In this document: piece after piece, positions 17,234 to 26,165 of the stretch
Position numbering within the stretch: position 1 is the first letter of the stretch
Layout: each line of letters starts with the position of its first letter
Assembly: GCF_000012925.1 (NCBI RefSeq)
Contig: NC_007517.1
Span: 360,001 to 392,000, forward strand
Length of the DNA stretch: 32,000 bases
Direction: 5' to 3'
Source: Geobacter metallireducens GS-15
GTDB taxonomy: Bacteria; Desulfobacterota; Desulfuromonadia; Geobacterales; Geobacteraceae
Position numbers and translations under genes: made by a program
The notes under the pieces: model-generated
What the model was told of the DNA's origin: nothing
The model's input: the letters and a program-made list of their open reading frames with translations, nothing else
Databases searched by the model: none

Positions 17234-17292
17234 GAAAAATATAGTAATCTCGGGAAACGTCAGGACTGCCTGCCGATGAACGGAGTGCCTCT

Positions 17293-18195
17293 ATGTATTC
17301 CATGCAGGAAATCAAAGCGCATTACCTGTTCGGCGACGAGGATGCCGAAACGCTGAAGTCGCTCCTCTCCATAGCCCAGGCAAACCGGGAGCTGATGATT
17401 GAGGACTTTTACGACTATCTCCTCGGCATTCCGGAAACGGCCGCGTTTCTCCAGGACGACACGGTCCTCCAGCGGCTCAAGCTGAGCCACGGCGGATGGT
17501 TCGTCAACCTCTTCCGGGGCGTTTACGACAATCAGTACCTGCACGATCTCCAGCGCGTCGGTCATGTTCATGTCAAAATCGGGCTCAACGCCCATTTCGT
17601 GAACGCGGCCATGCAGAAGGTGCGGCGTTTTGCGGTCGGCATGATCAGGGAGAACTTTCCCGACCGGGACGAGCGGCGGAAGAAAACAGAGGCGGTGGAA
17701 AAGATTCTCGATATCAACCTCGACATCATGACGGCCTCCTACATCGAGGAGGAACTGAAGAAGGTCTTCATTTCCAAACGGCTGGAATCGCTGCTGGTCA
17801 GGGCAACGGAGCGTTTCACCTACGGCCTCAACCTGGTCCTGGTGCTCGCCCTGGTCGGCGTGTCCCTTTCGGTCGTTGGTCTGTTTTTCTGGGAGATATT
17901 TCATGTCTTCAGGGGCTCCGTCGAGAAAGGGATCCTGAGCGCCCTCGGTACGCTCCTCATCCTCTGGATGATGATCGAGCTCATGGACAACGAGATCAAG
18001 ACCCTGAAAGGGGGGCGCTTCAATATCCAGGTGTTCATCGGCGTGGTCATCATCGCCATCATCCGGGAAATCCTGATTTCGACGCTCCGTCACGATCCCC
18101 TGGAGACCCAGGTCTTCCTGGCCGGGACGCTGATGGTCCTGGGAGTCGTATACTACCTGGTCGCCCGAAGCCAGCAGATATCGCCCATACGCTGA
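17293..18195 (+). CDS. Globin-coupled sensor: N-terminal sensor globin (protoglobin-type) fused to a C-terminal 4-helix membrane domain (300 aa)
   Basis: The N-terminal ~160 aa have GCS hallmarks (HYLFGDEDAETL, FYDYL, proximal-His motif RVGHVHVKIGL). The C-terminal ~130 aa are hydrophobic helices, possibly PsiE-like. The architecture matches what I recall for the Geobacter sulfurreducens GCS, which has a transmembrane output domain. Confidence 0.8.
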   Translation: MYSMQEIKAHYLFGDEDAETLKSLLSIAQANRELMIEDFYDYLLGIPETAAFLQDDTVLQRLKLSHGGWFVNLFRGVYDNQYLHDLQRVGHVHVKIGLNAHFVNAAMQKVRRFAVGMIRENFPDRDERRKKTEAVEKILDINLDIMTASYIEEELKKVFISKRLESLLVRATERFTYGLNLVLVLALVGVSLSVVGLFFWEIFHVFRGSVEKGILSALGTLLILWMMIELMDNEIKTLKGGRFNIQVFIGVVIIAIIREILISTLRHDPLETQVFLAGTLMVLGVVYYLVARSQQISPIR

Positions 18196-18249
18196 GTGGG
18201 GAGCGGGACTTATGCTACTCTTTGAAATACAATGACGTGAGGGTGAGCC

Positions 18250-19629
18250 ATGGGGAGTGAAAAAGGAACTATTGATCCCGCTGTGTACCGGGCGATTCTG
18301 GCAAGTATGGGGGATGGAATCGTCTTCCTGGATACGGAGGACTGTTTCGCCTACATCAACGCGGCCGCAGAGAAGATCCGCGGCATCCGGGCGGAAAACT
18401 ACCTGGGGCGCCATATCCTTTCCATCTTCGGCACCCATTCCAACCATACGTCCGAGCGGGTGCGCAAGCTGCTGGCCGCCCTCAGGAGCGGCGTCCTCCC
18501 CTTTCATGTCCATATCATCGAGACGAGGGGGAGGGTTTTCGAGAACAGCTATTACCCCATCCGCGATAAGGGAGGCAACTATCTCGGAACCCTGATGATG
18601 AGCCGCGACATCACCGAGAAGGAGCGGCTCAAGGCGGAAAACCTCACCCTTCGCGAGCAGGTGCTGTCCGAATTCGGCTGCTGCGACCTGGTGGGCTCCA
18701 GCGATGTCATGCGCCCCATCTTCCAGATCATCAATGCCGCCGCTGCCGTCGACTCCACCATCCTGATCACCGGCGAAAGCGGCACCGGCAAGGAGCTGGT
18801 GGCCCGGGCCGTCCACCAGCACAGCGCGCGCAAGGATCTCCCCATGATCAAGGTCAACTGCGCGGCCCTCCCCGATACCCTCCTGGAATCGGAACTCTTC
18901 GGCCATGAAAAGGGGGCGTTTACCGGTGCCATCAAGGAGCGCAAGGGGAAATTCGAGCAGGCCCACGGGGGAACCATCTTCCTCGATGAGATCGCGGAGA
19001 TGCCCCTGGCGGCCCAGGCCAAACTGCTCAGAGTGCTGCAGGAGAGGACCGTGGAGCGCCTGGGGAGCACCCGGGAGATCAGGGTGGACGTGCGGATCAT
19101 CGCCGCCACCAACCGCGACCTGCGCCGGGAGGTGACGGCGGGACGGTTTCGGGAAGACCTCTTCTATCGCCTCAACGTCATCCCGATCCATATCCCCCCC
19201 CTGCGGGAGCGGACCGAGGATATCCTCGCCCTGGCCCGGCAGTTCCTCAACCGGTTCGCCGAGAAGATGCACAAGCCGGTCATGGAAATCGCCCCGGAGG
19301 CCCAGAAGGCCCTCCTGGAATACAACTATCCGGGCAATGTCAGGGAACTGGAAAATGCTGTCGAGCGGGCCGTTGCCCTCTCCCTTGGCAGCAATCTGCG
19401 CCTCGGAGATCTCCCGTCGGAGTTCACCGCTCCGCACCCAGCCGGTGCTCAGCCGCTTTCCCCGTCCGCCGGTCCCGCTTCCCTGGCCGATAGTGTTCAT
19501 TCCATGGAAAAAAACGCTATCGAAGAGGCCTTGCGCTCCACTGGCAACAAGAAGGGAGATGCCGCTCGACTCCTCGGTATCTCCCGGAAAACCTTGTGGG
19601 AAAAAATGAAACAGCTGGGGGTCACGTAG
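18250..19629 (+). CDS. Sigma54-dependent transcriptional activator, PAS - AAA+ - Fis-type HTH (459 aa)
   Basis: PAS (ILASMGDGIVFLD...SRDITEKERL), Walker A GESGTGKE, sigma54-contact loop EKGAFTGA, Walker B IFLDEI, and C-terminal HTH GNKKGDAARLLGISRKTLWEKMKQ. There is no receiver domain. Confidence 0.93.
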   Translation: MGSEKGTIDPAVYRAILASMGDGIVFLDTEDCFAYINAAAEKIRGIRAENYLGRHILSIFGTHSNHTSERVRKLLAALRSGVLPFHVHIIETRGRVFENSYYPIRDKGGNYLGTLMMSRDITEKERLKAENLTLREQVLSEFGCCDLVGSSDVMRPIFQIINAAAAVDSTILITGESGTGKELVARAVHQHSARKDLPMIKVNCAALPDTLLESELFGHEKGAFTGAIKERKGKFEQAHGGTIFLDEIAEMPLAAQAKLLRVLQERTVERLGSTREIRVDVRIIAATNRDLRREVTAGRFREDLFYRLNVIPIHIPPLRERTEDILALARQFLNRFAEKMHKPVMEIAPEAQKALLEYNYPGNVRELENAVERAVALSLGSNLRLGDLPSEFTAPHPAGAQPLSPSAGPASLADSVHSMEKNAIEEALRSTGNKKGDAARLLGISRKTLWEKMKQLGVT

Positions 19630-20692: not shown

Positions 20693-20787
20693 GTCGTTTG
20701 AAATAATTAAATGATCTCTGTTTGCTTGCCTTTAGGTAAAAGGTGTTGCATCCACGAGGTATGAATTCAACGTCAAGGAGGTATGGA

Positions 20788-22131
20788 ATGAAGAAGCAAG
20801 TAGCAATTACCGTTGCCGCGGCGTGTCTGGCATTCTCCGCTACCGCCCACAGTGAGAGCCGCATCAAGGAAGGTGCTTTGTCGGTGAGCCCCTTCGGTGG
20901 GTACACGTTCTTCGACCGGGACTCTGATCTCAAGAGCCGGCCCACCGGCGGTCTCAGGCTCGGCTACAACTTCACCGAGAACGTGGCAGTCGAGGGTTCG
21001 GGAGCCTATACCGACACCAAGTACGATAACGGCAATGGAAGCTCCAATGTCTATCGTTATGGCGCCGAGCTCCTCTATCACTTTATTCCCCAGTCACGGG
21101 TTGTGCCGTTCCTGGCAGCGGGGCTCGGCGGTATTACCTACGAAGGCCGTGAAGGTGTGCCCGATGCAGATCGGACCGACGGGATACTCACTGCCGGCGG
21201 CGGTGTGAAGCTCTTCCTTGTGGATCGTATTGCGCTTCGCGCCGATGGCCGCAACATTTTTACCTTCAACGATGCTCTGAATCATCAGGAAGTCACCGCC
21301 GGCCTCGATTTTCAGTTCGGCGGCGGCAAGGCTGCTCCGGCTCCGGTCAAGGCTGAACCGAAGCCCGAGCCCAAGCCCGAGCCCAAAAAGGTTGTCGCTA
21401 CTGCACCCCTCGACAGTGACGGCGATGGCGTACCCGACAATCTGGACAAGTGCCCCGATACCCCGGCCGGCGTCAAGGTCGACAGCGTCGGCTGTCCGCT
21501 GGACAGCGACGGTGACGGCGTACCCGATTACCTGGACAAGTGCCCCGGCACCCCGGCCGGCGTGAAGGTCGACAGCGTCGGCTGTCCGCTGGACAGCGAC
21601 GGTGACGGCGTACCCGATTACCTGGACAAGTGTCCCGGCACCCCGGCCGGCGTGAAGGTCGACAGCGTCGGCTGCCCACTGGATACGGATGGTGACGGCG
21701 TACCCGACTACCTGGACAAGTGCCCCGATACGCCGAAAAATGCCGCCGTCGACAAGAACGGCTGCCCGGAGAAGGTCTGCATCACCCTGAAGGTTGAGTT
21801 CGACTTCGATAAGGCCAACATCAAGCCCGAGTTCCGCGATGAGATCAAGAGAGTGGCCGACTTCCTCAAAGAGTATCCCGACGCCACTGCGGTGATCGAA
21901 GGGCATACCGACAGCAAAGGAACTGTGAAGTACAACCAGAAGCTCTCCGAGCGCAGGGCCAAGGCCGTCATGAAGAACCTGGTCGACGAATTCGGAATCT
22001 CCGCCAAGCGTCTTTCTGCCAAGGGGTATGGCGAGACCAAGCCGGTTGCCGACAACGCCACCGAAGAAGGGCGCCAGAAGAACCGCCGCGTAGTGGCCAA
22101 CATCGACTGCGGGCTGAAGAAGCGCAAGTAA
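20788..22131 (+). CDS. OmpA-family outer-membrane protein: beta-barrel + Pro-rich linker + 4 TSP3 (calcium-binding) repeats + OmpA C-terminal domain (447 aa)
   Basis: AAGGAGG RBS. Signal peptide ends ATAHS. An alternating-hydrophobic barrel region is followed by the AEPKPEPKPEPKK linker and 4x DSDGDGVPD.LDKCP repeats. The C-terminus has OmpA peptidoglycan-binding motifs (GHTDS.G...YN..LSERRA..V). Confidence 0.9.
   Translation: MKKQVAITVAAACLAFSATAHSESRIKEGALSVSPFGGYTFFDRDSDLKSRPTGGLRLGYNFTENVAVEGSGAYTDTKYDNGNGSSNVYRYGAELLYHFIPQSRVVPFLAAGLGGITYEGREGVPDADRTDGILTAGGGVKLFLVDRIALRADGRNIFTFNDALNHQEVTAGLDFQFGGGKAAPAPVKAEPKPEPKPEPKKVVATAPLDSDGDGVPDNLDKCPDTPAGVKVDSVGCPLDSDGDGVPDYLDKCPGTPAGVKVDSVGCPLDSDGDGVPDYLDKCPGTPAGVKVDSVGCPLDTDGDGVPDYLDKCPDTPKNAAVDKNGCPEKVCITLKVEFDFDKANIKPEFRDEIKRVADFLKEYPDATAVIEGHTDSKGTVKYNQKLSERRAKAVMKNLVDEFGISAKRLSAKGYGETKPVADNATEEGRQKNRRVVANIDCGLKKRK
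21409..21768 (+). repeat. Four tandem 90-bp coding repeats (30-aa thrombospondin type-3-like units)
   Basis: Units are 21409-21498, 21499-21588, 21589-21678 and 21679-21768. Units 2 and 3 differ at 3 of 90 nt. Units 1 and 4 are more divergent. Confidence 0.95.
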
Positions 22132-22636: not shown

Positions 22637-23805
22637 ACCTCCAGTCTAACCTCCGCCCCCCACGGCGCCGGCTTTTCACCATCCCGCGTCAGCACCCAGA
22701 GGGTAGGGAATTCCATCGGTTCCGGCACCGGACCAATGCCGTCGGTAAGGTAGATAACCGCAGCAGGGAGGGGGTGCATGGTCCGCGCAAAACTGAAAAC
22801 CGGCCGCAGATCGGTGAACCCTCCCCCTTCGTAGATTTCAACTACCGACGCAACTCCACGGAAAGCGTCGATCCTCTGGATTCGGCTGTTGGCGTAAAGT
22901 ACGGTGATAGTTGACTCCCGTCCCCGGGAGATCCGGACCAACTCCTGGGCGAAGGCCTCCCGCAGTTCGACGCTGTTGGTTGAATCGCTCACGTCGATTC
23001 CGATCAGGAGGTTCAGGCGCCGCATTTTTCGGGTCCCGGGCGTGATATGAACAAAACGGCGATGCTCCTTCATCCAGGTGGTCTGCCGGCCCGTTCTCCC
23101 CGCCGTCGCCACGAACTGCCGGAGCACCTGGCGCCACGGAATCGGCGAGGGGGCGAGCATCCCCGCCACCACCTGCCGGATGTCGGCCGGCACCTCTCCG
23201 TCACAGGCCCGGTAGGCGTCGCGCACCATCCCCCGCACCACTTCCTCGGCAAGACGCACCGGCGTGGCATCGGCATCGTCCCAGATGGCGTGGTCGTCCA
23301 CTGTCGCCACGGACTGCTCCTCGTCCTCCCCGGACTCCTTCTTCCCCCCGCTATCCCGCGAGGCGTTTCCCGTGCCGTACCCCTTGAGGCTTCCCGTGTC
23401 GAAGGGGTCGACGAGGAGGGCGTAGTACTCCTCAGCCGCAAGCCCTTCCTCCAGCTTGAAGGCCCGGGGGAGGAGCGCATCGGCGGGGAGGTGCTCGATG
23501 GAGGGGTTGATGGCCAAGTCGCAGGCCAGGTCCCAGTCGTGGTTGTTTCTTCCCTTGCGGCGAAACATGTGGAGGTGGATCAGGTGCTTGATGGTGTGCT
23601 CCAGGAGCCCTTCCTGAACCTGCGGGGGCTCGGCCCCGAAGAGAGGGGCGTTCACAGCCAGGGTTGGCACCCCGTCCCGCACCGTCACCCCGAGGGGGTG
23701 GCCGCCGTTCCCTCCCTCCCGGCGTAGTCCCAGGAGGAACCGGCCGTAGAAAGGCTTACGCTTCAGCATCCGAACAATGGCGTTTTCGATATTCCGCTTG
23801 GGCAT
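22633..23805 (-). CDS. DUF2201-type protein: N-terminal degenerate metallopeptidase-like domain + C-terminal VWA domain (390 aa)
   Basis: The start at MPKRNIE overlaps the yqaA stop (TGATG); the longer track ORF reaching 24054 overlaps yqaA. N-terminus is KPFYGRFLLGL...LEHTIKHLIHLH..WDLACDLAIN, with the HExxH position reading HTIKH. The VWA MIDAS motif is DVSDS, followed by a later LTDG. Confidence 0.75.
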   Translation of the reverse strand: MPKRNIENAIVRMLKRKPFYGRFLLGLRREGGNGGHPLGVTVRDGVPTLAVNAPLFGAEPPQVQEGLLEHTIKHLIHLHMFRRKGRNNHDWDLACDLAINPSIEHLPADALLPRAFKLEEGLAAEEYYALLVDPFDTGSLKGYGTGNASRDSGGKKESGEDEEQSVATVDDHAIWDDADATPVRLAEEVVRGMVRDAYRACDGEVPADIRQVVAGMLAPSPIPWRQVLRQFVATAGRTGRQTTWMKEHRRFVHITPGTRKMRRLNLLIGIDVSDSTNSVELREAFAQELVRISRGRESTITVLYANSRIQRIDAFRGVASVVEIYEGGGFTDLRPVFSFARTMHPLPAAVIYLTDGIGPVPEPMEFPTLWVLTRDGEKPAPWGAEVRLEV

Positions 23806-24248
23806 CACATCCCCCGCACGGTGATCCAGGCGATAAAGGCGTAGCGGGCCAGTTTTCCGCTCCCCACAAGGAGCGAGAACCGGATGAACCTCACCCGGAG
23901 GATTCCTCCCACAAGGCAGAGGGGGTCGCCGATGACCGGCAGCCACGAAAAGAGAAGGGACCAGGAGCCGTACCGGCCATAGAGACGGTCGGCCCGGCGC
24001 TCCGTCGCCTCGTCGATCCTGAGGACTCTGCGCACCAGAAAGGGGCCGCCCCACATGCCGATGGCGTAGGTGGTGCAGGCCCCGAGCCAGTTGCCGACGG
24101 TTGCCACGCCCACCGCCAGCGCCGGGTCATGATGCTTGAGGAGGAGCGTGACCAGAAGCCACTCGGAACCGATGGGGACCAGGGTAGACGCAAGGAAACT
24201 CAGGCCGAAGAGGGCCGGAAGGCTATGGGTTGTCAGGAGCTGCTCCAT
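23805..24248 (-). CDS. yqaA: YqaA-like DedA-family inner-membrane protein (147 aa)
   Basis: LLFSWLPVIGDPLCLVGG and GNWLGACTTYAIG align by eye with E. coli YqaA (LLLSWMPVVGDLLCLLAG; GNSLGGLTNVILG). Confidence 0.85.
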   Translation of the reverse strand: MEQLLTTHSLPALFGLSFLASTLVPIGSEWLLVTLLLKHHDPALAVGVATVGNWLGACTTYAIGMWGGPFLVRRVLRIDEATERRADRLYGRYGSWSLLFSWLPVIGDPLCLVGGILRVRFIRFSLLVGSGKLARYAFIAWITVRGM

Positions 24249-24311
24249 TGTGTAACCCTAGCGGAAGGGGACGGAAAATGTCAAAGGGTTTGCATCTGCA
24301 GAAATTAGGGC

Positions 24312-24341
24312 TTGACATATTCTAATGGGTTGGGCGACTAT
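24312..24341 (+). promoter_or_regulatory. Sigma70-like promoter TTGACA-N18-GACTAT
   Basis: Consensus -35 at 24312-24317 and a weak -10 at 24336-24341. The predicted start coincides with the A of the leader ATG (24349), suggesting a leaderless transcript. Confidence 0.35.
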
Positions 24342-24348
24342 ACGACCC

Positions 24349-24441
24349 ATGATCAATTTCGGCTTCTTTTCCTACGTTAGCTTTTACTTTTGGTGCGGCT
24401 TTTATTTTAGGCCGTCTGCCCAGGGTAGGGGTTTGTTGTAG
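24349..24441 (+). CDS. Aromatic-rich leader peptide (30 aa) MINFGFFSYVSFYFWCGFYFRPSAQGRGLL
   Basis: Residues 4-20 contain 7 Phe, 3 Tyr and 1 Trp. The ORF lies between a promoter-like element and an intrinsic terminator, upstream of DAHP synthase. No SD precedes the ATG. Confidence 0.6.
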   Translation: MINFGFFSYVSFYFWCGFYFRPSAQGRGLL

Positions 24442-24472
24442 GGAAGCTGAAAAACACTACACACTAAACCGG

Positions 24473-24510
24473 AAGCCGAGGGTGGACAGAGAGACCACCC
24501 CCGGCTTTTT
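24473..24510 (+). terminator. Attenuator-type intrinsic terminator
   Basis: AAGCCGAGGGTGG-acagagaga-CCACCCCCGGCTT with one A/C mismatch, ending in a run of five T (24506-24510). It lies 31 nt after the leader stop and 86 nt before the DAHP synthase ATG. Confidence 0.8.
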
Positions 24511-24539
24511 CAGTTGTTAAGACCAATATCGTGACAGTC

Positions 24540-24567
24540 AAAGGCCGGGGGAAATCCTCCGGCCTTT
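24540..24567 (+). other. Second 5'-UTR hairpin AAAGGCCGG-N10-CCGGCCTTT
   Basis: Perfect 9-bp stem between the terminator and the RBS. It is not followed by a clean T-run, and its function is unknown. Confidence 0.4.
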
Positions 24568-24596
24568 CGTCTTTCCGGGACCACAGGGAGGAAAGG

Positions 24597-25616
24597 ATGA
24601 TCATCGTCATGAAAGCAGGTGCAGCGAAAAAGGACCGGGACGAGGTAATCAAGCGGATCAAGGAGCTGGGGTACAAGCCCCACGTGATCCACGGAACCAC
24701 GCGGGACGTGATCGGGGCCGTGGGGGACGAGCGGGGGAAGCTGGTGCTGCAATCGATCGAATCGATGCACGGGGTGGAGAGCGTGGTCCCGATCCTCAAG
24801 CCCTACAAACTCGCCTCCAAGGAGGTGAAGGTGGAGCCGAGCATCATCCGGATCAGCGATGCGGTGAGCATCGGCGGCAAGGAGATCATCGTCATGGCCG
24901 GCCCCTGTTCGGTGGAAGGGGAGGAGCAGATCATCGAGACGGCCAAGGCGGTGAAGGCCGCCGGCGCCCAGGTGCTCCGCGGTGGGGCGTTCAAGCCGCG
25001 CACCTCCCCGTACTCCTTCCAGGGCCTTGAGGAAGAAGGACTCAAGCTTCTGGCCAAGGCCCGGGAGATCACCGGCCTTCCCATCGTTACCGAGGTGGTG
25101 AATCCCGAGACGGCGGATCTCGTGGCCGAGTACTCTGACATCCTCCAGATCGGCGCCCGCAATGCCCAGAACTTCGCCCTGCTCAAGAAGGTCGGGCAGC
25201 TCAGGCGGCCGGTACTCCTCAAGCGGGGCATGTCCATGACCATCCAGGAGTTCCTCATGAGCGCCGAGTACGTCTTGAGCGAGGGGAACCAGTCGGTGAT
25301 CCTCTGCGAGCGGGGAATCCGCACCTTCGAGACGGCAACTCGCAATACCCTTGACCTCTCCGCCATCCCGGTCCTCAAGGGGATGACGCACCTGCCGGTC
25401 ATTGCCGACCCCTCCCACGGTACCGGTAACTACCACTACGTGGCCCCCATGGCGCTGGCCGCCGTTGCCGCCGGGGCCGACGGGCTAATGATCGAGGTGC
25501 ATCCCGATCCGGAACGGGCCTCGTCGGACGGTCCCCAGTCCCTCAAGCCCAAGAAGTTCGATGCCCTCATGACGAAACTCAGGCTCGTTGCCGAGTCCGT
25601 GGACCGGATTGTCTAG
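24597..25616 (+). CDS. aroG: 3-deoxy-7-phosphoheptulonate (DAHP) synthase, class I-beta with N-terminal ACT/ferredoxin-like regulatory domain (339 aa)
   Basis: AGGGAGGAAAGG RBS. MIIVMK...regulatory domain, then [39 protein letters not shown] and DPSHGTG, as in Thermotoga-type DAHP synthases. The track ORF opens upstream at 24531. Confidence 0.92.
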
Positions 25617-25712
25617 CAAACGGTCGAGCAAAACCCTTGCGCCCTTCCCGATGCTGCGATAGGATTGGTTGTTTTTAACCATGGTGGACAGCACAAGCTG
25701 AGGGAGGGGTAC

Positions 25713-26165
25713 ATGCATATCATTCGTCGTATGGTGGCGGTCGCGGTCGTCATGCTTGCCGTTGCCGGTCCGGCCAGTGCCCGCACGGCACGGCCCGCCG
25801 ATCCGGGGATGGCTGCCGAGGCCCGGCAAAGCCTGGAAGATATCCTCGATACCTGGCGCGACGGTAACTACGAGCTTCTCTATGATCGGACGAGCGTGAG
25901 CGGTCGGGAAAGCCGGGAGGGGTTTGCCCGCAAGCTGGCCAAAGCCTCCCGCCGCCCCGCCTGTTGCTGGGAGAAGCTTCAGGAGGTGACGGTGTCGGCC
26001 CGCAGCGGCGATACCGTCACGGTTCGGGGCCGCTTCGGGCTGGACGGGGGGCCGGGAGGGACCGAGTATGCAACCAGATCGGTTCGCCTCGTGCGGGAGG
26101 ACGGGGTATGGAAGGCGTCCCGGGCAGATATCCTCTCCCTTGCCGGCGAGAAGCGCAGACGGTAG
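25713..26165 (+). CDS. Exported hypothetical protein, possibly NTF2-like fold (150 aa)
   Basis: GGGAGGGG RBS and signal peptide MHIIRRMVAVAVVMLAVAGPASA. The fold is guessed from size and pattern only. Confidence 0.6.
   Translation: MHIIRRMVAVAVVMLAVAGPASARTARPADPGMAAEARQSLEDILDTWRDGNYELLYDRTSVSGRESREGFARKLAKASRRPACCWEKLQEVTVSARSGDTVTVRGRFGLDGGPGGTEYATRSVRLVREDGVWKASRADILSLAGEKRRR

Follow-up and report, generated by a model that had tools for sequence, protein, structure and literature searches.

A probable ribosome-mediated attenuator with an aromatic-rich leader peptide and two hairpins upstream of the class I-beta DAHP synthase gene of Geobacter metallireducens and other bacteria

The DNA analysed here, called the window throughout, is a stretch of 32,000 nucleotides (nt) of Geobacter metallireducens GS-15 (NC_007517.1, positions 360,001 to 392,000, forward strand), and all positions given below are counted from its first letter. 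It carries a gene for a class I-beta 3-deoxy-D-arabino-heptulosonate 7-phosphate (DAHP) synthase, the enzyme of the first common step of aromatic amino-acid synthesis. The 348-nt spacer in front of this gene has a GC content of 50%, compared with 62% for the window as a whole, and holds a short open reading frame (ORF) for an aromatic-rich peptide followed by two strong hairpins, T1 and H2. An earlier note, made from the sequence alone, had read this arrangement as a ribosome-mediated attenuator. Conservation of the ORF, the recurrence of T1, compensatory changes in the antiterminator and a predicted switch of the fold all speak for this reading, and based on sequence comparison and modelled RNA structures we put the probability that the element is a transcription attenuator of the trpL/pheL/hisL type controlling the DAHP synthase gene at about 85%. 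The neighbouring upstream gene lies on the minus strand, so that T1 and H2 do not serve as its terminators. The features of the locus are as follows.

23805-24248, minus strand: upstream gene, VTT/DedA-like (PF09335).
24312-24317, plus strand: -35 box TTGACA of the putative leader promoter, read from the sequence.
24336-24341, plus strand: -10-like hexamer GACTAT, separated from the -35 box by 18 nt and from the leader ATG by 7 nt, read from the sequence.
24349-24441, plus strand: leader ORF of 30 codons plus TAG (24439-24441), encoding MINFGFFSYVSFYFWCGFYFRPSAQGRGLL, with no Shine-Dalgarno (SD) sequence; from ORF reading and comparison.
24379-24401, plus strand: segment 1, codons S11-G17 and the first two bases of F18, which pairs with segment 2 in the free RNA (anti-antiterminator); from the minimum free energy (MFE) structure.
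24385-24399, plus strand: predicted effective sensing codons Y13-F14-W15-C16-G17; from a masking simulation.
24409-24433, plus strand: segment 2, in the region of codons R21-L29, with the core GUCUGCCC (24414-24421) and either segment 1 or segment 3 as partner; from folds and covariation.
24430-24470, plus strand: spacer hairpin (24430-24441 with 24457-24470), with the leader stop codon in its 5′ arm, closing the antiterminator loop; from folds.
24471-24510, plus strand: T1, with segment 3 (24471-24487), segment 4 (24493-24509) and a U-run (24506-24510); from folds and comparison.
24540-24577, plus strand: H2, with segment 5 (24540-24551), segment 6 (24556-24567) and the U-rich tail UUUCGUCUUU; from folds and covariation.
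24586-24591, plus strand: SD sequence GGGAGG of the DAHP synthase gene, 5 nt before its ATG, read from the sequence.
24597-25616, plus strand: class I-beta DAHP synthase with an N-terminal ferredoxin-like regulatory domain, ATG at 24597-24599; the class, also named in the earlier note, is confirmed by NF006421 (522 bits), PF00793 and, for the N-terminal domain, PF18152.

As described in the earlier note, residues 4-20 of the leader peptide comprise seven Phe, three Tyr and one Trp. An ATG-initiated ORF with 11 aromatic residues out of 17 was obtained in none of 2000 dinucleotide shuffles of the spacer, which reached a maximum of 8, and the window holds no second small ORF of such aromatic density. 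In other assemblies of the same sequence no gene is called at the leader ORF, none of four leader peptides matched NCBIfam or Pfam (two of the four were scanned against Pfam), and ten leader peptides were all absent from a collection of 15 billion proteins.

Scanning species-representative genomes with the DAHP synthase protein returned 80 loci, the best match (89%) being in Geobacter argillaceus. An aromatic-rich ATG ORF is present 215-290 nt upstream of the DAHP synthase gene in the loci that we number L001-L032, L034 and L035, which belong to Geobacteraceae, other Desulfuromonadales and, in two cases, Thermodesulfovibrio. In these loci together with the window, 35 in all, the leader frame contains no stop and 352 aromatic codons among 1013 (35%), whereas the other two frames contain 50 and 42 stops. 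The variable N-terminal part has 30% aromatic codons in frame compared with 5% and 18% in the other frames. Each of the 35 peptides has 4-10 Phe and at least one Trp, and the number of Tyr ranges from none to four, with Tyr missing in several lineages outside Geobacteraceae. The joint sensing of Phe, Tyr and Trp suggested earlier is therefore consistent with all 35 leaders as far as Phe and Trp codons are concerned, and does not extend to Tyr in every lineage.

Twelve further loci carry a leader upstream of the DAHP synthase gene: six from Methylomirabilota/Rokubacteria, three metagenome-assembled genomes (MAGs) of Thermodesulfobacteriota, one Syntrophaceae MAG, and two MAGs labelled only Thermodesulfobacteriota and Proteobacteria. 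A degenerate pattern scan of metagenome contigs gave 112 matches, 80 of which were listed. Among these 80, 68 have a DAHP synthase gene 172-329 nt downstream on the same strand and 6 lie on contigs that end too early to judge; another 6, which have neither an aromatic ORF nor a DAHP synthase gene, were rejected as chance matches to the pattern. Overall, more than 100 loci share this layout in front of an orthologous DAHP synthase gene, and they belong to Geobacteraceae, other Desulfuromonadales, Thermodesulfovibrio, Methylomirabilota and Syntrophia. Since the DAHP synthase gene follows in all 68 informative metagenome matches listed and in all genome loci, the element appears to be dedicated to this gene. 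A small ORF with aromatic bias, which the earlier note had proposed to look for in relatives, is thus kept in frame at each orthologous locus inspected in Desulfuromonadales and in three other lineages.

Two metagenome contigs (L125 and L157) encode DAHP synthases 97-98% identical to that of the window, and their leaders vary at G5S, F6L, V10F and Y13N, indicating that single aromatic positions turn over fast and that aromatic richness and the F-W-C-G-F-Y-F-RPSA part are fixed. Both contigs also keep an in-frame upstream ATG (24325 in the window) that falls within the promoter spacer and shows no conservation in other genera.

Comparison of the start regions revealed a fixed promoter geometry. 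In 83 distinct loci a TTGAC(A) motif is located 29-33 nt (mode 31) 5′ of the in-frame leader ATG. The relatives carry an A/T-rich hexamer at -13 to -8, with T at its sixth position in 61 of the 83 loci, and the base at -1 of the ATG is a pyrimidine throughout (C in 71, T in 12). An SD-like motif (GGAG, GAGG or AGGA) is found within the 13 nt before the ATG in only three loci. This constant distance from promoter to ATG places +1 on the A of the ATG or one base before it, and the leader is probably translated from a leaderless mRNA. Of the leaderless start proposed in the earlier note, both the promoter geometry and the missing SD sequence hold across the 83 loci; the start itself is deduced from that geometry.

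The core of T1 is formed by 24471-24487 and 24493-24509 (-18.0 kcal/mol) and lies 31-33 nt after the leader stop, in agreement with the hairpin and T5 run noted before. In 33 of the 35 loci the leader stop is followed, after 24-40 nt, by a hairpin with an energy of -12 to -25 kcal/mol and a tail of four to eight U residues. The two exceptions, both from Geomonas (L001 and L008), have a first hairpin that lacks the U-run, and only their second hairpin has one. H2, likewise noticed earlier, consists of 24540-24551 paired with 24556-24567 (-22.0 kcal/mol). Its stem covaries, with seven pairs changed on both sides and a score reached by none of 500 shuffles, and it is also present in Thermodesulfovibrio, Methylomirabilota and others. 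Gaps of about 30 nt each separate T1 from H2 and H2 from the ATG of the DAHP synthase gene. The whole leader RNA (24349-24567) has an MFE of -92 kcal/mol with z = -6.0 relative to shuffles.

A simple terminator scan flagged neither T1, which has a 9-nt loop, nor H2, whose stem runs into the U-tract; since these omissions follow from the loop and stem rules of the scan, we did not use it as evidence either way. The sole site that it reported is a 6-bp hairpin within segment 2 (24415-24429), with about 0.8 such sites expected by chance in this region; as a terminator it is improbable, and it shares bases with the switch core. A sub-threshold Rfam match (25.4 bits, E = 0.007, gathering score 45) of 24469-24573 to the alphaproteobacterial small RNA (sRNA) ar35 places T1 and H2 on the two terminal hairpins of the model, and most likely reflects a generic resemblance between two-hairpin RNAs.

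Central to the case for a switch is the antiterminator, a helix between segments 2 and 3. The earlier note had pointed out that GUCUGCCC (24414-24421) could alternatively pair with GGGUGGAC (24480-24487) in the 5′ arm of T1, and this pairing is supported both by compensatory changes and by structure prediction. In a MAFFT alignment of 33 sequences, the ten-pair antiterminator core is 89% paired, compared with 34-45% when the partner is slid by one to three columns; five pairs are changed on both sides, and the covariation score was reached by none of 500 column shuffles. Two middle pairs read U-A/G-C, then U-G/G-U in the window, and then C-G/A-U in L014. Thermodesulfovibrio has GUCUAUC/GAUAGAC, and L029 and L030 have the unrelated pair CAUCGACCCG/CGGGUUGAUG. 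Moreover, RNAalifold applied to the MAFFT alignment without guidance returned exactly the 2:3 helix as consensus structure. Translated in the leader frame, the GUCUGCC core yields P-S-A at 30 loci, R-L-P at one and V-C/R/G-P at 11, so that the RPSA tail of the leader is constrained as RNA and not as peptide. The competing inner hairpin of segments 1 and 2 is 88% paired in the 33 sequences, compared with 15-51% in slid controls. The spacer hairpin occurs in most relatives with differing sequences, for which a mean z of -1.2 gives modest support.

We then asked how the fold depends on the position of the ribosome by keeping every base single-stranded between the 5′ end and the position 12 nt beyond the A-site codon. 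For transcripts ending at T1, 24 of 33 relatives reach a predicted probability of T1, P(T1), of less than 0.5, and only with the A site at about codons 12-18; at later codons, at the stop codon and in the free RNA it returns to about 1 in these relatives. When H2 is included, P(T1) and P(H2) of the window decrease from 0.96 and 1.00 to 0.03-0.28, and only with Y13, F14, W15, C16 or G17 in the A site. The window RNA also pairs segments 2 and 3 when the transcript stops before the 3′ arm of T1, which corresponds to the co-transcriptional situation. In line with this, a second, independent folding tool (fold_strand) predicted 2:3 plus 4:5 for 24404-24567 (MFE identical to the centroid, z = -3.7), whereas 24349-24567 folds as 1:2 plus T1 plus H2. 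The mutually exclusive structures that the earlier note had suggested looking for are hence predicted, with masking of the RNA under a stalled ribosome exchanging terminator for antiterminator, in the window depending on where the transcript ends.

Besides T1, the antiterminator may affect H2. The 3′ arm of T1 including the U-run, CCCCCGGCUUUU (24498-24509), can form 12 bp without a mismatch with the 5′ arm of H2, AAAGGCCGGGGG (24540-24551), and this 4:5 duplex is predicted at -23.9 kcal/mol, with T1 at about -18 to -22 and H2 at -22. Based on hand-defined hairpins, 4:5 duplexes average -18.7 kcal/mol when both arms come from the same lineage and -14.0 across lineages, a difference that is clear in four of eight lineages among loci that are not independent of each other. 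In four Methylomirabilota loci (L041, L045, L058 and L059), hairpin 1 lacks a U-run and hairpin 2 has one, the two hairpins having the stem GCCGCGGG in common, and in L048, one of the remaining two loci of this group, the 4:5 helix is itself the MFE structure predicted for the downstream region. With the U-run on the second hairpin only, as in these four loci and in the two Geomonas exceptions, regulation would need to pass through a 4:5 relay, and this is our main reason for taking such a relay seriously in the window as well. We give about even odds to a his-like six-segment relay with H2 as its last element.

Several observations weigh against the attenuator interpretation, either as a whole or in its parts. 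The -10 hexamer GACTAT is weak, and a consensus promoter scan of the region reports no promoter. The early aromatic codons F4-Y9 fall outside the predicted effective window of codons. Nine of the 33 relatives do not switch at equilibrium; nor does the window transcript cut at the end of T1, where P(T1) is 0.96 throughout, and the window antiterminator taken alone (-18.5 kcal/mol, with two G-U pairs) is not stronger than T1. When the transcript is extended to 24577, T1 and an extended H2 win again. The 1:2 helix is nearly invariant and essentially without covariation, with one compensatory pair. Within Geobacteraceae the 4:5 helix is 90% paired yet does not covary, and its G/C/U-rich arms pair to 70-76% even when slid by one column. 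Finally, the U-tract of H2 is interrupted in the window and poor in a clade of Geobacteraceae (L018-L026). The two states of the window are close in energy, and the argument for a switch rests on the order of co-transcriptional folding and on the 4:5 helix. A terminator more stable than its antiterminator is also found in the E. coli trp leader, where 3:4 likewise exceeds 2:3 in stability, so that the situation in the window is not unusual.

Taken together, the element would operate as follows. Transcription is expected to start at the leader AUG or within about one base of it, and the leader would be translated without an SD sequence. With ample aromatic aminoacyl-tRNAs, the ribosome would reach the stop codon (24439-24441), where it would cover segment 2, or after its release segment 1 would pair with segment 2; 3:4 (T1) and 5:6 (H2) could then fold, and RNA polymerase would stop at about 24510 or, failing this, at about 24575. 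When charged tRNA-Phe, tRNA-Tyr or tRNA-Trp is scarce, the ribosome would stall with its A site at about codons 13-17 (Y-F-W-C-G), covering segment 1 and leaving segment 2 free, whose core GUCUGCCC would pair with the GGGUGGAC stretch on the 5′ side of T1. The released 3′ arm of T1, CCCCCGGCUUUU, might in turn pair with the 5′ arm of H2, AAAGGCCGGGGG, in the presumed relay. Neither terminator would then form and the DAHP synthase gene would be transcribed. Translation of the leader, the positions of the 3′ ends and the response to starvation are predictions drawn from the sequences and folding models.

Three other explanations were weighed against a ribosome-mediated attenuator. The striking conservation of W15-A24 within Geobacteraceae, with an invariant W, could point to a nascent-peptide arrest sensor of the TnaC/SecM type, in which free aromatic amino acids, and not a shortage of charged tRNA, would cause the motif F-x-F-W-x-G-F-Y-F-R-P-S-A to stall the ribosome. 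However, the conserved 3′ part is the RNA element, which is read in three frames across lineages, and the W and G codons are invariant because they pair with segment 2, L014 even showing the synonymous compensatory change GGT/CGA. Outside Geobacteraceae the peptides (FFFWFGFFGFFMNHRP, FFYFAEVRPPA, YYYYFLPVCP) share nothing but their aromatic richness, and arrest by free amino acids would raise expression at high levels of the end product, the opposite of what a biosynthetic gene requires. We thus regard an arrest peptide as extremely unlikely. Since the helices 2:3, 3:4, 4:5 and 5:6 exist irrespective of leader translation, and the leader lacks an SD sequence, one could also imagine an RNA switch independent of translation (a riboswitch, a T-box-like element or the target of a protein resembling TRAP or PyrR) that selects among the same helices and for which the ORF is incidental. 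Such a switch would not account for the absence of in-frame stops from 1013 codons of a T-rich region with 42-50 stops in the other frames, for an aromatic enrichment that is confined to the leader frame even where the sequence varies, or for the fixed distance between promoter and leader ATG. Besides the relay hairpins there is no conserved structure of aptamer size, and Rfam yields no family at gathering score and no T-box or leader family at E <= 10; a switch of this kind is very improbable.

Alternatively, the leader region might be a free-standing small gene, for an sRNA that ends at T1 or for a micro-protein rich in aromatic residues, with the DAHP synthase gene transcribed from its own promoter. 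T1 and H2 would in this case give discrete transcripts of about 160 and 225 nt, the weak sub-threshold match to the two-hairpin sRNA ar35 would fit, and rnTrpL and peTrpL of Sinorhizobium, an attenuator RNA and a leader peptide, are reported to be able to act in trans (PMC7968998; bioRxiv 10.1101/606483). Yet in all 68 informative metagenome matches listed and in all genome loci the element immediately precedes the DAHP synthase gene in the same orientation, the short gaps from T1 to H2 and from H2 to the ATG hold no conserved promoter, and covariation of an antiterminator would be without purpose in a plain sRNA. A consensus scan found nothing promoter-like between leader and DAHP synthase gene in the window, which is weak evidence as the same scan also misses the leader's own promoter. 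An independent gene is therefore hardly to be expected here, although a role in trans may exist on top of control in cis. A more far-reaching version of the attenuator, which we hold to be rather unlikely, combines a six-segment relay with two terminators, a leaderless mRNA and a cassette that is kept or exchanged across at least four lineages with its GUCUGCC/GGCAGAC core almost unchanged, and with a possible action of the abundant terminated leader RNA, or of its peptide, in trans in the manner of rnTrpL and peTrpL. If this were true, a single stalled ribosome would disarm both terminators by strand exchange, first through 2:3 and then through 4:5, and the off state would be tighter and the response sharper than in attenuators with one terminator.

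The DAHP synthases of the two Thermodesulfovibrio loci (Nitrospirota; L027 and L028) are 75-77% identical to that of the window, compared to 70-74% for other Desulfuromonadales (L029-L035), and the layout of leader, T1 and H2 in both loci is the same as in the window. Judging from these sequences, gene and attenuator may have spread horizontally as a cassette. An ORF of 150-166 amino acids (aa) without a Pfam match (25665-26162, plus strand) follows the DAHP synthase gene at a distance of about 96 nt in every assembly examined, and may be co-transcribed with it and hence also be subject to the attenuator. In the full-length MFE structure, CUUUCC just 3′ of H2 pairs with GGAAAG in the region from SD to ATG to form a weak hairpin within 24571-24595, which in this model could lower translation initiation on read-through transcripts; no equivalent was noticed in relatives. 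Elsewhere in the window, a 745-aa ORF (17260-19497, minus strand) has no Pfam match, and 20743-22131 (plus strand) encodes an outer-membrane protein of the OmpA/OprF type, whose beta-barrel and OmpA domain are separated by three near-identical thrombospondin type-3 repeats in tandem.

Rfam models gave no match at gathering score anywhere in the 32-kb window, including Phe_leader, Trp_leader, His_leader, Leu_leader, Thr_leader and T-box, and at E <= 10 the region 24200-24650 yielded no leader or T-box family and only sub-threshold ar35, miRNA and snoRNA models. The earlier note knew of no described Phe/Tyr/Trp leader for this enzyme class in Geobacter-type bacteria, and no description of the element in Geobacter or in the other lineages that carry it was found in the literature searched, which included Rodionov 2004, Naville and Gautheret 2010 and papers on TyrA and on Actinobacteria; an earlier prediction may exist outside these sources.

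The element is real and widespread and apparently undescribed as a family; conceptually it is not new. It assigns a concrete candidate mechanism of regulation to the committed step of aromatic amino-acid synthesis, and its reach extends from Geobacter-type metal reducers to the poorly studied Methylomirabilota, Thermodesulfovibrio and Syntrophia, in which gene regulation is largely uncharted. It also brings to light a small ORF without annotation and a family of RNAs, which current Rfam, NCBIfam and Pfam models miss. Its less common features are the probable leaderless translation and the tandem, possibly coupled terminators, and it would thus represent a natural example of terminators apparently linked by strand exchange behind a leader peptide that seems to be made from a leaderless mRNA. 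It could be of use for studies of how transcription and translation are coupled outside model organisms, and as a sensor of small size for aromatic amino acids. Nothing is overturned by it, as textbooks have described the principle ever since trpL and hisL, and Corynebacterium is known to have a Phe/Tyr leader in front of a DAHP synthase gene.

In the leader attenuators of E. coli pheL-pheA and trpL-trpEDCBA, the position of the ribosome decides the fold (PMC11802643, PMC4007540). The window element resembles them in its short ORF with codons for the end product, its intrinsic terminator and its antiterminator that uses the 5′ arm of the terminator. In contrast, it has no sequence or structural homology to them, with neither Phe_leader nor Trp_leader of Rfam giving a match, and it would control the first common step of the pathway instead of a branch. 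Moreover, its leader is mixed in Phe, Tyr and Trp and lacks an SD sequence, and two hairpins instead of one follow the antiterminator. Arrest peptides such as TnaC and SecM are defined by conservation of their amino-acid sequence, whereas the core of the window element is conserved as RNA.

The Corynebacterium glutamicum aroR leader controls a DAHP synthase of a different class (I-alpha AroF). It is the closest functional precedent for the window leader: ribosome stalling at a Phe-Tyr-Phe leader controls the aroF DAHP synthase operon, with Tyr availability reportedly without effect (Neshat et al. 2014, as described in PMC11802643). A mixed aromatic leader for DAHP synthase is therefore not new in principle. 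The aroR leader differs by its phylum and its much shorter aromatic motif.

For leaderless leader peptides, Deinococcus deserti offers a parallel, with 14 predicted cases in front of genes for amino-acid biosynthesis and tRNA synthetases, in which the AUG lies at the mapped transcription start site or one base from it and there is no SD sequence (PMC4007540). In contrast to D. deserti, where the starts were mapped experimentally, the start in the window is deduced from promoter geometry alone, in a lineage not noted for leaderless mRNAs.

The his leader of E. coli and Salmonella has six segments, in which AB, CD and the EF terminator alternate with BC and DE and a freed segment propagates the switch to the distal terminator (PMC10989985). 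The window element is set apart from it by its aromatic codons, by the lack of homology and by a 4:5 helix without covariation within Geobacteraceae. It is similar in the predicted alternation of 1:2, 3:4 and 5:6 with 2:3 and 4:5, and in four Methylomirabilota loci the U-run is found on 5:6 only, as on EF. Unlike in the his leader, the middle hairpin 3:4 of the window and of most Desulfuromonadales has a U-run as well, resulting in tandem terminators.

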